Made by a program: the position numbers. From Candidatus Babelota bacterium (GTDB taxonomy: Bacteria; Babelota; Babeliae; Babelales; Vermiphilaceae), in the NCBI GenBank assembly GCA_049325595.1, contig JBMOLF010000011.1, positions 12,319 through 76,318 on the forward strand: 64,000 bases of DNA, in the 5' to 3' direction. Shown in pieces: positions 33,001-36,000 of the stretch; position 1 is the stretch's first letter; every line of letters begins with the position of its first letter.

Positions 33001-36000
33001 AATATTTTATGTGCTTCAAGCCTTGCCAAACAAAATAGCCATCTGATTTTAAACCAGCTTCTGTCGCCATTGGAATTAGGTTAAGTAAATTAAGCATACT
33101 TATTATAAAAGACCCACTGGTCGCATTTGAGATAGAGCCATTGATAATCTTATTTAACAATAATCCACAAATAGTACCACTAAGAGGGCCCAACGCAGCC
33201 AATGCCATATTTTTTGTTGTCTTAATTATTTCTTCTTTTTTTGTAGCAGAAGGTTTTTGAGCAATCCCAGGAACGGCTGCAAAAATAGGTAATCCATGAA
33301 AATGAAATGGACCAACATTCAATAAAGCTTCATTTTCGTTGACACTAACATTTGGTACGTGATCAAAATGAATATTTATAGGCTCATTAAAAAACAATTT
33401 GCCGGCAATAGCATGCCCCATTTCATGGGTAACAAGTACGGTTAACCAAGATGTAGCAAAAACTCCAAATGACTTTGACCATTTCAAAGTTGAATCCATA
33501 GGATGGGCAAAAGAAGGTAAGGCTAGAAGCAAGAATAACGCTTTTAATTTCATAGTAAAACCTCCATTTTTCTATTCAATTATAAGCTTATCAGAATAAT
33601 TAAAAATTTCAATTAGAAAAATATAAAAATGAATAAAAAAAGAGGCTTTTTTAAGGCCTCTTTAATTTTTTTCTTATAGCTTACGCTAAGCGTTGGTGAC
33701 GTTGAATAACGCGACCAATGATTCTGAAGTGGTCTTTGCCACGAACAAGCGCTATTGGCGGTTGTTTATGGTTTACTGATTCTAATACGATAAAGTCATC
33801 AGTATAGGTTACTTGCATAATCGCACGCACTGGGGTGTCATTACCATACTCAACTGCTGCGATATCACCTGAACGAGTCCACACTTCTGGAGAAATGATT
33901 AAATAATCACCTTTTACAAAAGTAGGCGCCATCAAGTTATGATCGATGCAAAGAGAGAACATTGAGGTATCGGTTGTGTTTAAAATAGGAATAAACACAT
34001 CTTTGTACCCGGTTGTTACTTGCATTAATTGGTTGTTGTATGGAGATGGATTTGCAGGAATGTCACCTAAAACTGGGACAATTTGCACTTTGAGTTGTAC
34101 GTCAGTTTGCTCAGGCAAGCTTACGTTACTATCAATGTTATCGGTACGTTTACGACGTTGTGCAAAAAGATCGATCGGGCTTACTTCAAACGCATTTGCA
34201 AGCTTGCGCAATGAATCTTCATTCCAGCGACGGGTACCGTTTTTAATGTGAGTTAAATAGCTTTCAGACATACCGGTTTTTTCTGCTAAAACCTTGGTGG
34301 TCCACCCTTTTTCTCTTAAGAGTTCTTTAACTCGGAGTTCAGTTGAACGAGAAATCATGATATACTCCTCCTATTACCATGAAAATAAGTAAATAAGATT
34401 ATAAAATACTGCTTATTTCAAATTGTACACGAATTCTCACTCTTGTCAAACTGAAAAGATTGCCAATGACAATAATTATACAGGCATCACGCATAAAACA
34501 ACGTTTCAAAAAGAATTATTTTGAACAAGAAGCTTGGGCTCAAAATAGGGTAGTATGCGGCATTGATGAGGTAGGTAGAGGCCCACTAGCAGGCCCCGTT
34601 GTAACGGCGGCAGTAATTTTACCAAAAAATAAAATTAGCCCTTTAATTAAGGATTCTAAAATCCTCACACCCGAAGAGCGCCTTAAGGCTTATGCATGGA
34701 TTACCAAGCACTGTTGGTACTCAATTGGCATGGCCCACCATAGAATAATTGACCAACAGAATATATTTCACGCAACACTAATTGCAATGAAAAAGGCACT
34801 TGTTAACATATTGGCAATTTGTCCTGAACGTCCAAGCTCTATTTTAATAGATGCCATGCCACTTAAAATTCATGACACGGCTTATGCAGACATTCCCGTA
34901 AATTATTTTCCTTTTGGCGAGAGCAAATCAACCTCAATTGCAGCTGCTTCTATTGTTGCAAAAGTTCGCCGCGATATGTTGATGGAGCGTATGGATACTA
35001 TTTTTACCGGATACCATATGGGCCAACATAAAGGCTATCGCACCCCGCAACATAAAAAAGCGGTGGAAATGGGCCAAAAGCCCTTAATTATTCACCGTAT
35101 GAGTTTTGTTAACCGCTTAGCAGAATATGCAGCCGCAGGTGTTACCGAGGATGAGTCACATGACCAACAAACCTTGTGCTGAAATTATTGAAAGCTCTTT
35201 AACTGAATGGCTCGCTCAAAGCTGGCAATGGAATCAATTTCCTTCCTTTGGTTCTTTGATTACTATTCAAACAAAAAAAAGAACACTGTTTGGCATTGTT
35301 CATCATATTCAAACAGGATCCATGGACCCCGGCAGATACCCTTTCCCTTATCAAAAAACACATGAAGAACTTATGGTAGAGCAACCGCAGATATTTGAGT
35401 TTTTAAAGACTACTTTTTCGTCGCTGGTGCTTGGCTATCAAGAAAAAGGGAAAATTTATTACCAATGGCCACCTGAGCCACCATTGATTCACTCATTTGT
35501 CAGCAATGCATCGCCTGAACTTGAACGTGAATTTTTTAGTTCAGCTGCCTACCTTGCTTTATTATTTGGTCATGCCAATAAAATTACTAATTTAGACGAA
35601 TTATTGCTGGCTATTATCAAAAAACAAGCAGCAAACAATAATCTTAATGAAGAAAAATTAGCTCGCATTATTCAAGATTACTCCTTGCTAACCGGTAATG
35701 ATTATCGAAGACTTAAGCTTTTTGCACAGCGTGCGCAGCAAATCATCCAATAAAATTCTATTAGAAGGTTATTAAAATTTTATTGAAACTTAATTATTTT
35801 AATTTAAAATAATACATTATTTCTTATGATCTAAATGGGGTTCTCAATGCGCATATCCGTTAAAATTCTTTCAGTTTTGTTTTTTATTGCATTTTTTGGG
35901 CAAGCTCAAGCTTCGGTGAGTGCTGTTATGGCAAAAATAACTTCACTCTATACCAATATATTGTGCCATGAATTAGGCCATGCAACAGTTAACAAAATAT

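Follow-up and report, generated by a model that had tools for sequence, protein, structure and literature searches.

LexA-family proteins are textbook regulators that switch off by self-cutting. The lambda repressor cI, in which an XRE-type helix-turn-helix (HTH), a linker, a cleavage-site region and an S24 beta core follow each other in that order, dimerizes through its C-terminal domain and self-cleaves on RecA filaments (A111-G112, S149, K192). Phage 186 CI forms higher oligomers and is not known to be RecA-cleaved, its inactivation being brought about by the antirepressor Tum. In cellular organisms, regulators with an XRE head and an S24 domain took over SOS control in Bacteroidetes (as a non-canonical LexA; PMC8565304) and in Francisella (FddR, which autoregulates via a palindrome in its own promoter; PMC13148647). 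FddR keeps the Ala-Gly bond as well as its Ser-Lys dyad (PMC13148647), and PrlP of S. suis, likewise a cellular HTH and S24 protein co-opted for host regulation, keeps the Ala-Gly bond and self-cleaves (PMC12273997). A precedent for an uncleavable member of the family is the LexA of Synechocystis sp. PCC 6803, in which the Ala-Gly site and the catalytic Ser are missing; it does not cleave itself and controls non-SOS genes (PMC7567884). The Gifsy repressors were considered as the closest analogue and set aside, as they measure some 150 aa and do not have the two-domain organisation of cI (PMC3121763).

Here, we describe a regulator of the Dependentiae that shares the domain order of lambda cI and is modelled as a dimer through its C-terminal domain, but carries A102-N103, L142 and M181 in place of the cI cleavage residues; while cI is encoded by a prophage gene, this one is chromosomal, phylum-universal and fixed in its synteny. 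With the Bacteroidetes LexA it has in common that it is a cellular, phylum-specific HTH_3 and S24 regulator in a lineage devoid of canonical LexA (PMC8565304), yet it has lost all three cleavage determinants and no SOS link was found for it. The Synechocystis protein differs in having a canonical winged-helix head, in missing only the site and the Ser, and in that its loss is described for that species (PMC7567884), whereas the Dependentiae regulator has an XRE head, has lost the Lys too, and combines extreme conservation with a loss that is fixed phylum-wide. Our literature searches returned no paper joining Dependentiae and LexA, nothing relevant among the matches listed for Dependentiae and regulators, and nothing on repressors for S24 domains without a catalytic serine.

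A two-domain regulator conserved throughout the Dependentiae

The regulator gene and its parts were located as follows in the window (the whole stretch of 64 kb that was analysed):

33681..34358 (-), regulator gene, 225 aa, XRE HTH, linker and S24-like domain (ORF, Pfam, homologues)
34161..34334 (-), XRE-type helix-turn-helix, aa 9-66 (HTH_3/19/26/31)
34083..34160 (-), linker, aa 67-92 (disorder predicted for aa 68-82)
33999..34082 (-), equivalent of the LexA and cI cleavage-site region, aa 93-120 (column counts, hhalign)
33684..33998 (-), S24-like beta core, aa 121-225, predicted to be catalytically dead (Peptidase_S24, structural matches)
33681-33683 (-), stop codon

The reading frame came out as in the initial annotation, and so did the architecture it had proposed, with HTH_3 at aa 10-63 (E 2.5e-10) and Peptidase_S24 (PF00717) at aa 126-218 (E 9.2e-11, covering hmm positions 29-116 of 116, with 41.9 bits where 23.3 is the cut-off). 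A phmmer search of the PDB again matched XRE HTH domains only. Homologues with E<=1e-3 numbered 1815; some sources name the protein 'phage repressor protein C'. The structure model (overall pLDDT 84.5; >90 for aa 90-220, <50 for linker residues 68-82) displays a five-helix Cro/C1-type HTH (helices 10-17, 21-28, 32-39, 47-57 and 61-64), which matched the HTH domains of SinR, C.AhdI, DdrO and P22 c2 at VIA Z 10-11 (rmsd of XRE domains 1.1-2.6 at these scores), and a confidently modelled aa 93-120 segment (pLDDT >90) containing a helix at 106-115. The S24 core matched LexA C-terminal domains at a VIA Z of about 12, while the best structural match was lambda cI (3bdn_A, Foldseek E 2.1e-8; 8gmu_A, Z 13.0, rmsd 2.6, 115 aligned residues); 2HO0 and 1JHE were among the further Foldseek hits. 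An alignment was also obtained between the model and the C-terminal domain of phage 186 CI (2fjr_A, Z 10.6, rmsd 2.5, 103 aligned), although the latter belongs to a phage protein with no detected sequence similarity (11% identity in the structural alignment).

The regulator was present in 255 of 261 Dependentiae genomes (140/145 genera) and in all 189 genomes of good quality (>=90% completeness, <=5% contamination); the six genomes without it are 55-87% complete. Its identity across the phylum lies at 75-91%, and its median (84%) exceeds the medians obtained at the same loci for S18 (64%), FtsY (61%), RNase HII (56%) and S6 (52%). In one cultured strain the protein is 99% identical. Conservation is highest in the DNA-reading head (aa 5-66, median identity to the query 95.2% in 80 orthologues, against 78.8% for the linker and 81% for the C-terminal core), which is nearly invariant in the phylum, paralogues included. 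The 78.6% identity to genome G183 given in the initial annotation was reproduced over the full length of the protein, and its fifth place in conservation proved exact: the regulator ranks 7 of 422 reciprocal best hits (median identity 48.6%), and once the spurious ORFs within the 23S and 16S rRNA that take ranks 1 and 6 are set aside, it is the fifth of 420 real ortholog pairs, behind RNR-beta, S21, IF-1 and Rho. There is strong support for a single-copy protein that almost all Dependentiae possess and that is very highly conserved among them, which makes it likely that its function is important. One genome (86% complete) has a copy with two frameshifts between intact neighbours; barring an assembly error, this speaks against the protein being strictly essential.

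The S24 fold had been proposed as a dimerization or sensor module, and for dimerization we obtained support from modelling: the homodimer reached an ipSAE of 0.51 in three runs (0.00 for the best of 3 controls), with a contact agreement between runs of at least 92% and a partner pLDDT of at least 91, although the model may have passed because it had learned the solved dimers of LexA, cI and UmuD'. In calibration, 20 of 30 one-chain pairs of solved structure attained the ipSAE mark, whereas 1 of 23 proteins solved as single chains did so. The predicted interface (aa 122-126, 145, 165-166 and 217-225) supports a homodimer through the C-terminal strand of the S24 domain.

The surroundings of the gene are chromosomal rather than those of a prophage, and a scan of 18 genes around it gave no match to a phage family:

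34460..35182 (+), rnhB (RNase HII), divergent neighbour (Pfam RNase_HII E 1.8e-29)
33634..33663 (-), terminator, a hairpin with T runs on either side that follows the stop codon immediately

RnhB lies immediately upstream in 57 of 80 loci and rpsF downstream in 62 of 80. The hairpin scan reports a stem at 33639-33663 on the + strand, the (-) T run having been read from the sequence; a hairpin with a T run also follows the gene in relatives, and its position after the stop codon indicates that the gene is monocistronic. An operon with rpsF-rpsR was discarded, since in the gap (median 173 nt) lie the terminator hairpin and an rpsF leader of its own. Of 23 public runs consulted on expression, none was listed as a source of RNA. 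Flanking the gene are four small M50-like membrane proteins, which were considered as conserved partner proteases and dismissed, as they occur only in its own genus.

Self-cleavage determinants and the SOS question

Residue equivalences to LexA and cI were taken from sequence alignment (MAFFT) and profile-profile alignment (hhalign; probability 100%, E 9.8e-46 against a cI-headed profile), both of which place the three determinants of self-cleavage at:

34050..34055 (-), codons Ala102-Asn103, at the place of the Ala-Gly scissile bond (cI A111-G112, LexA A84-G85)
33933..33935 (-), codon Leu142, position of the nucleophile Ser (LexA S119, cI S149, UmuD S60)
33816..33818 (-), codon Met181, position of the general-base Lys (LexA K156, cI K192)

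The loss of the nucleophile, put forward in the initial annotation, holds, with Leu142 of the N-L-M motif filling the Ser column in both alignments. The loss of the general base is upheld as well, but through another residue: the Arg that had been assigned to this position (Arg178) pairs with cI F189, three residues upstream of the Lys equivalent, which is Met181. Among 81 orthologues, the Ser column holds L40 A16 Q11 G3 S3 F2 M2 N2 V1 T1, the Lys column M75 V2 T2 L1 A1 and not a single K, and the scissile-bond columns S71/A9/T1 followed by N81; Ser/Ala-Asn hence stands at the scissile-bond equivalent in 80 of 81, Ser-Asn being the commonest form in relatives. Fourteen additional copies (from 10 genomes of other families) have S in the Ser column in 3 cases and K in the Lys column in none, so that Ser and Lys occur together in 0 of 95 family members. 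One representative of a 50% cluster (P0133) has the Lys at the base column without the Ser at the nucleophile column. By comparison, 47 generic XRE-S24 relatives retain S in 36 cases, K in 31, both in 29 and A/C-G in 34. The catalytic loss is thereby stronger than originally stated, Ser, Lys and the Ala-Gly bond being gone across the family, and the alignments strongly support the replacement of all three LexA/cI self-cleavage determinants in the regulator.

In the aa 93-120 segment, the column counts (81 sequences) revealed a near-invariant G-x-I-P-S/A-N-P-S-P-Y-N-N-Q-L. As a bolder speculation, the invariant Asn103-Pro104, one residue past the scissile-bond equivalent, could permit a slow cleavage of the Asn-cyclisation type.

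The absence of a canonical LexA beside recA, umuD and umuC was confirmed by TIGR00498, PF01726 and a survey of S24 domains. This genome, which contains recA (C15:147225-148013), encodes just two S24 domains, namely the regulator and a UmuD-like one beside a umuC-like gene; its best TIGR00498 score, 24.2 bits, stays below the cut-off of 110.95. The regulator itself scores 20.1 bits, over aa 94-218 only, its head being HTH_3 and not PF01726. The latter, the LexA DNA-binding domain, exceeded its cut-off in 6 of 261 genomes and is essentially absent from the phylum. Genes for umuD-like proteins were detected in 49 of the 261 genomes; among 30 aligned UmuD homologues of the phylum, the Ser-Lys dyad is retained in 22, of which 21 have Ala-Gly as well. 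Because the dyad survives there, the catalytic loss is specific to the regulator, whose S24 fold we regard as repurposed and not as decayed. The 'non-SOS' role that we infer for it derives from the lost cleavage chemistry.

Promoter, extended -35 block and candidate targets

The upstream region of the regulator gene carries the following elements:

34422..34449 (-), core promoter TTGACA-16-TACAAT, matching the consensus at 11 of 12 positions (promoter scan, orthologue comparison)
34444..34457 (-), extended -35 block TTTTCAGTTTGACA, local variant of the phylum-wide TTTTCYATTTGACA (upstream alignments)
34408..34430 (-), conserved -10 and start-site block GTGTACAATTTGAAATAAGCAGT (upstream alignments, PWM)
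34365..34372 (-), Shine-Dalgarno AGGAGGAG (read from sequence)

Upstream of 79 of the 81 orthologues the core promoter is kept, and in 71 the spacer measures 16; the pattern TTGACA-N16-18-TA[CT][AT]AT has only 9 sites in the 1.29-Mb genome. An (A)GGAGGAG/AGGAG-like element precedes the start codon in most aligned upstream regions (by eye). The -10 block is retained in 80 loci with at least 80% protein identity and is not conserved in families f16, f18 and f19; with a PWM score of 25.4 at the regulator promoter, as compared to 18.2 for the next best site, a second occurrence was not found in this genome.

The exact 13-mer of the extended -35 block was found in 60 of the 81 orthologous upstream regions. 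Across the phylum, the block TTTCYATTTGACA, of which this genome has a variant, yielded about 294 matches in 180 of 261 genomes (about a few dozen for the reversed control), most genomes having a single exact copy, and in 9 genomes checked it lies 82-98 nt upstream of the regulator gene. Twenty other block sites were examined, which are not independent, as some are orthologous pairs of sister genomes; 18 of them have an ORF of 60 aa or more that starts 56-132 nt downstream; 13 of these 18 ORFs passed a signal-peptide test (a crude heuristic), compared to 23-28% of all ORFs. Secreted proteins encoded behind the block are possibly host-directed.

We consider the regulator's own promoter its most likely candidate DNA target and the secreted-protein genes behind TTTCYATTTGACA a candidate regulon. 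A far-reaching version, in which the protein would govern a promoter class of the whole phylum as its master transcription factor, reading TTTCYATTTGACA at its own and at secreted-protein promoters, setting the infection programme of these obligate intracellular bacteria and using the dead cleft together with the invariant IPSNPSPYNNQL loop as a sensor or partner surface, is one we advance tentatively and hold to be rather improbable. The block overlaps the -35 hexamer and thus may have nothing to do with the regulator and instead mark promoter strength or a sigma factor; it also lacks palindrome or dyad symmetry, which the sites read by XRE and cI dimers usually have.

Other candidate operators were rejected. 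The pattern TTTC-N5-GWCAA, derived from orthologue versus paralogue promoters, had a few intergenic matches, none with orthologous support; an inverted-repeat reading of the two promoter blocks (8/13, by eye) is not kept in f16, f18 and f19; and the hairpin TACCAGAAA...TTTCTGGTA, situated 3' of the gene in relatives and absent from the window, recurs after other genes (L038). The 9-mers common to G000/G183 orthologous upstream regions contained no recurrent motif and stemmed mostly from upstream coding sequence and tRNAs.

Proposed role and competing explanations

We reason that the regulator is probably a lambda-cI-like transcription factor unable to cut itself, and as such constitutive, non-SOS and dimeric. 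Its gene very probably forms a transcription unit of its own, behind a sigma-70-type promoter that is close to consensus and kept phylum-wide; its dead S24 domain would act as a dimerization module via the C-terminal strand, as in LexA, cI and UmuD', and the dimer would bind a conserved DNA site. It would not be switched off by RecA-stimulated autoproteolysis, and would thus be either constitutive or controlled by its level, a ligand or a partner, for which the near-invariant segment IPSNPSPYNNQL, at the position of the LexA cleavage loop, offers a candidate control surface. Since conservation and the loss of self-cutting go together in almost every Dependentiae genome, the protein is probably a central regulator that DNA damage does not switch off. 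An intracellular phylum with small genomes and very few regulators would thus have fixed a self-cutting-deficient LexA-family version, conserved better than most ribosomal proteins, with the S24 fold as a pure dimerization or sensor module. It is the first concrete candidate for a central regulator of the Dependentiae, accompanied by a DNA element and candidate secreted-protein targets, and for the evolution of the SOS response the phylum is a further lineage in which recA and umuDC occur without a repressor that can be cleaved.

An SOS-like, damage-responsive repressor, inactivated by RecA-filament binding, an antirepressor or a protease acting in trans, would suit a phylum that lacks canonical LexA, yet has recA and, in part of its genomes, umuD-like genes. 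The intact UmuD dyads imply that RecA-stimulated cleavage still operates in those proteins, umuDC may need a regulator, and structural neighbours of our model include RecA-filament-bound LexA and cI; moreover, XRE-headed S24 regulators run SOS in Bacteroidetes and Francisella (PMC8565304 and PMC13148647). This explanation is nevertheless improbable in our estimate: the three cleavage determinants are gone in every family examined, a by-eye comparison of 30 umuD upstream regions with the regulator promoter disclosed no common motif, and the adjoining small M50-like proteases are confined to its own genus. Furthermore, umuD is patchy (49/261) and the regulator universal (255/261), so that umuDC control cannot be its main role. 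The notion of a domesticated prophage immunity repressor without a host regulatory role, which draws on the best PHROG match (phrog_4 repressor, E 2.2e-19, aa 9-219), on lambda cI as top structural match and on the 'phage repressor protein C' naming, is extremely unlikely given the fixed rnhB-rpsF position in most of 80 loci with no adjoining phage genes, the occurrence in 189/189 good genomes and a conservation (75-91% identity) above that of ribosomal proteins.

Extreme conservation, a strong, constitutive-looking promoter and the failure of the PWM, 9-mer and TTTC-N5-GWCAA searches to deliver a regulon would also fit a DNA-binding protein for nucleoid organisation, replication control or segregation instead of transcription; we deem this very unlikely, as the characterised relatives of the same architecture that are named in the papers and structural matches considered are all transcription factors and the invariant recognition helix suggests one specific site and not general DNA binding. 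Lambda cI recruits RNA polymerase at PRM, and the Dependentiae protein might similarly be mainly an activator, recruiting RNA polymerase at or over the -35 of TTTCYATTTGACA promoters and thereby turning on secreted-protein genes and itself. The sole non-coding promoter element kept in all families indeed abuts and includes the -35 hexamer, and the block stands before signal-peptide genes in f1, f12, f14, f17 and f18. An activator of this kind is unlikely all the same, considering the block's missing dyad symmetry, its single exact copy in most genomes, and a link to the regulator that consists of co-conservation and presence at its own promoter, and of nothing else. A one-mismatch copy of the block, in keeping with such a promoter class, exists in this genome as well:

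2527..2539 (-), TTTCTATTTGAAA, one mismatch to the block, candidate promoter of the same class

This site lies 58 nt upstream of an ORF (1261-2481, (-)) that encodes a 406-aa protein with a hydrophobic N-terminus.

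Fold of the regulator and loss of its cleavage determinants

The regulator is encoded in a genome of 1.29 Mb (24 contigs, 95% complete) from the phylum Dependentiae, and at this protein the named records closest to it come from 'Candidatus Dependentiae bacterium Noda2021' (99%) and Vermiphilus pyriformis (86%).

33681-34358, reverse strand: regulator ORF, 225 aa

Pfam profiles recovered an XRE-type helix-turn-helix (HTH_3, aa 10-63, E 2.5e-10; HTH_19, HTH_26 and HTH_31 as well) and a Peptidase_S24 domain (aa 126-218, model positions 29-116 of 116, E 9.2e-11, 41.9 bits against a cut-off of 23.3). 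None of the NCBIfam families exceeded its cut-off (the LexA equivalog gave 20.1 bits, cut-off 110.95, with a match confined to aa 94-218), and XRE heads were the sole phmmer matches among PDB sequences. The AlphaFold2 model, built on a 72-row alignment (mean pLDDT 84.5; >90 at aa 90-220, <50 at aa 1-4 and 68-82), has a head of five helices and a beta-rich tail. Its top Foldseek match was full-length lambda cI (3bdn_A, E 2.1e-8), with cI fragments and LexA next in rank; VIA-align placed residues 92-223 on cI in its RecA complex (Z 13.0, rmsd 2.6, 115 aligned), with Z values of about 12 for LexA C-terminal domains, about 11 for UmuD' and 10-11 for XRE heads. The top PHROG was the phage repressor family phrog_4 (aa 9-219, E 2.2e-19). 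The regulator is of the same build as lambda cI.

The catalytic positions were located in an alignment of E. coli LexA, E. coli UmuD and lambda cI (taken from annotated records) with the regulator, five family representatives and 22 generic XRE-S24 relatives, and by profile-profile comparison of a family alignment (A2, 25 rows) with a cI-headed one (A3, 50 rows; probability 100%, E 9.8e-46, 204 columns). Both approaches were concordant: the nucleophile serine (LexA S119, cI S149) corresponds to Leu142 in N-L-M, as the initial annotation had noted, and the general-base lysine (LexA K156, cI K192) to Met181. That lysine is indeed lost; the arginine previously assigned to its place (Arg178) aligns with cI F189, three residues upstream. 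The loss is wider than originally described, since the scissile Ala-Gly bond (A84-G85 in LexA, A111-G112 in cI) is also replaced, by Ala102-Asn103. Among 81 orthologues (the query and 80 loci), the serine column reads L40 A16 Q11 G3 S3 F2 M2 N2 V1 T1, the lysine column M75 V2 T2 L1 A1, and the bond columns S71/A9/T1 followed by N81. Fourteen further regulator copies (10 genomes, other families) held the serine in three cases and the lysine in none, and the two residues occurred together in none of the family members examined. The baseline of 47 generic relatives had Ser in 36, Lys in 31, both in 29 and A/C-G in 34. The variability of the nucleophile position indicates that it was freed from catalytic constraint and, as judged from these alignments, the regulator has lost all the cleavage determinants.

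Two copies of aa 88-225 were modelled with the family alignment in three runs and alongside three controls. The homodimer reached an ipSAE of 0.51 in all runs (0.00 for the best control), with contacts agreeing by at least 92% and partner pLDDT of at least 91, through an interface of aa 89-93, 122-126, 145, 165-166 and 217-225. Among proteins of solved structure, 20 of 30 one-chain pairs and 1 of 23 single chains attain the ipSAE mark. The models support self-binding of this region, even if the score may reflect likeness rather than independent evidence, because dimers of LexA, cI and UmuD' have been solved.

Distribution, conservation and a possible mode of action

Six-frame searches found the regulator in 255 of the 261 Dependentiae genomes (75-91% identity among the matches listed), including all 189 with completeness of 90% or more and contamination of 5% or less, and in 140 of 145 genera; the six genomes lacking a match are 55-87% complete. 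A big protein collection contained 1815 homologues, of which the best 120 clusters share 84-100% identity and measure 223-254 aa (all but two 223-227 aa). In a 50%-identity library the family proper consists of few representatives (62, 57, 51, 42 and 39% identity), separated by a gap from generic relatives at 33% or less.

Compared with its counterpart in the window over the same 80 loci, the regulator has a median identity of 84%, where S18 reaches 64%, FtsY 61%, RNase HII 56% and S6 52%. Reciprocal best hits between crude ORF calls of the window's genome and a whole genome of another genus (G183) yielded 422 pairs with a median identity of 48.6%, among which the regulator (78.6%) ranked seventh; once ranks 1 and 6 (ORFs lying within 23S and 16S rRNA) are set aside, the fifth place originally reported holds, behind RNR-beta, S21, IF-1 and Rho. 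Naive ORF calling puts such 'proteins' (C10:168366-168683 and C10:165828-166040 in the window's genome) at the head of any conservation ranking, from which they need to be removed beforehand.

Conservation is highest in the head (aa 5-66, 95%, minimum 90%), followed by the loop region (82%), beta core (81%) and linker (79%). Given that the head is invariant in paralogues too, the same DNA site should be read phylum-wide. We propose that this head would confer sequence-specific DNA binding and the dead S24 domain dimerisation, that RecA-triggered inactivation would be absent, and that control, if any, might act via the invariant loop G-x-I-P-S-N-P-S-P-Y-N-N-Q-L that stands in place of the cleavage loop. 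Phage 186 CI, whose C-terminal fold is related (Z 10.6), is controlled by an antirepressor. The underlying observation is right save for the lysine assignment, and the finding is real and robust; 'essential master repressor', as the initial annotation had it, is a reasonable interpretation that in this wording goes beyond the evidence. We regard the protein as a tractable candidate for the central regulator of a phylum about which little is understood, and as a clear-cut example of a pseudo-enzyme derived from a self-cleaving switch.

One copy (L189, G097:C6:192787-193458; genome 86% complete) carries two frame changes and shows 10 stop codons if the original frame is kept, whereas the surrounding rnhB (RNase HII), 208-aa neighbour, rpsF and rpsR (ribosomal proteins S6 and S18) are intact. 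Either the assembly is at fault or the gene was lost recently (a pseudogene). Families f6, f15, f16, f18 and f19 hold a second copy, 54-65% identical to the query and often in tandem (L179, L181, L187; elsewhere in the genome in L182 and L190), with the same invariant helix-turn-helix and the Ser-Lys dyad likewise missing. A different promoter, of type TTGACTnnCTGAAAG, precedes five regulator copies, among them the single copy of family f4 (G060).

SOS context and known systems

As first described, the genome has recA and a umuD-like/umuC-like pair though no canonical LexA was found in it. Only 6 of 261 genomes have a LexA winged-helix domain above the cut-off (G162:C31; G159:C291, C39 and C124; G038:C150; G098:C12; G222:C8; G139:C57), mostly on short contigs and in assemblies with 1-6% contamination (where contig sizes could be judged), and these few matches may be contaminants or mobile elements.

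The umuD-like genes have a patchy distribution and occur in 49 of 261 genomes. Within 30 aligned homologues, 22 kept Ser and Lys (21 of them Ala-Gly too) and eight were degenerate, including those of the window's genome and its sister. The intact dyad in most UmuD homologues implies that S24 chemistry is still selected where needed, and that the regulator lost it specifically and long ago. The window genome's own UmuD-like protein (128 aa; C1:139015-139401, outside the window; locus L001 1474-1860, reverse strand) adjoins the umuC-like gene and has Gly for the nucleophile Ser, Thr-Ser for the Cys/Ala-Gly site and a retained Lys. The degenerate set includes a short form beginning near the cleavage site (Ser to G, A or T and, in most, Lys to Arg), and the sister genome's copy contains a stop codon. 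By eye, no motif was seen in common between the 30 umuD upstream regions and the regulator promoter.

Cellular XRE-S24 regulators stand in place of LexA in Bacteroidetes (PMC8565304) and Francisella (PMC13148647), and one is cleaved under stress in S. suis (PMC12273997), all with the cleavage chemistry kept; Synechocystis has an uncleavable LexA that lacks Ala-Gly and Ser, regulates non-SOS genes and bears a canonical LexA head (PMC7567884). The Dependentiae regulator differs in combining a cI-type head with chemistry that is wholly lost and fixed phylum-wide. Literature searches found no paper joining 'Dependentiae' and 'LexA', and none of the papers they listed describes this family.

Gene neighbourhood and promoter

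Synteny around the regulator gene is conserved on the chromosome, with divergent rnhB preceding it in 57 of 80 related loci and rpsF (then rpsR) following in 62. The gap to rpsF (median 173 nt) contains both a T-run hairpin and, separately, the structured leader of rpsF, which indicates a monocistronic gene with its own promoter and terminator.

34449-34422, reverse strand: regulator promoter, TTGACA-16-TACAAT, 11 of 12 consensus positions
31763-32224: rpsF
32230-32288, reverse strand: conserved structured rpsF leader
32960-33553, reverse strand: M50-like small membrane protein
35835-36401, forward strand: M50-like small membrane protein
37694-38254, forward strand: M50-like small membrane protein
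38291-38887, forward strand: M50-like small membrane protein
2527-2539, reverse strand: TTTCTATTTGAAA site, ahead of ORF 1261-2481 (reverse strand)

In many relatives a long near-perfect hairpin, GTACCAGAAA...TTTCTGGTAC, with a T run lies directly 3' of the regulator stop codon (L042, L045, L050, L053, L079 and others); it occurs behind other genes in at least one genome (L038, at 8853 and 9611) and is absent from the window, which has a different terminator. At least 41 related loci have the leader (CTAAATAA-hairpin-TATAGTG-hairpin-CACTTCCAnTTAG) ahead of rpsF. From 24 rows, which included one mis-specified noise row, RNAalifold gave 11 pairs, of which 7 show compensatory changes. The leader matched no Rfam family at gathering score in five loci, and it resembles the S6:S18-binding rpsF leader.

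The four small membrane proteins (186-198 aa) apparently form a local family of paralogues around the regulator, and across the 80 loci they flank it in its own genus only. Peptidase_M50 gave weak matches in three of them (E 2e-5 to 2.2e-8); the one at 32960-33553, with no Pfam match, was grouped with them by its HEMGH motif, which matches HELGH of 35835-36401.

Sites of the form TTGACA-N16-18-TA[CT][AT]AT number only nine in the whole genome. Across orthologues the spacer sequence of the regulator promoter is free and two blocks, TTTTCYATTTGACA and GTACWATTAGAAWTAAGGCAGT, are conserved; families f16, f18 and f19 have lost the second and retained the first. The exact 13-mer TTTCYATTTGACA was found in 180 of 261 genomes (about 294 occurrences; one copy in most, more in some), its reversed control giving far fewer matches (a few dozen, counted from control columns). 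It is present in 60 of 81 orthologous regulator upstream regions, and lies 82-98 nt upstream of the regulator in the nine genomes checked (G007, G010, G022, G024, G029, G030, G121, G122 and G123).

Twenty extra sites were sampled from six genomes, a count that overstates independence, as orthologous pairs from sister genomes are included. In 18, an ORF of at least 60 aa began 56-132 nt downstream, and 13 of these 18 passed a crude signal-peptide test, compared with 23-28% of all ORFs; most of the remainder are signal-peptide-like, by eye, if an internal start is taken. The block forms no palindrome and contains the -35 hexamer; the regulator may be what binds it, or it may be a signature of promoters that another factor reads.

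In the window's genome, the form with one mismatch, TTTCTATTTGAAA, stands ahead of three genes whose products have hydrophobic N-termini; one of them lies in the window (ORF 1261-2481) and has a paralogue directly downstream (46-1236). These sites belong with a promoter class seen in several families of the phylum, in which an extended -35 block, (ATA)TTTTCTATTTGA[CA]A, a spacer and TAnAnT stand ahead of genes with signal-peptide-like product starts; sites of this class outside the window lie at C15:185987 and C17:27520 of the window's genome (both forward strand) and in loci L260-L278.
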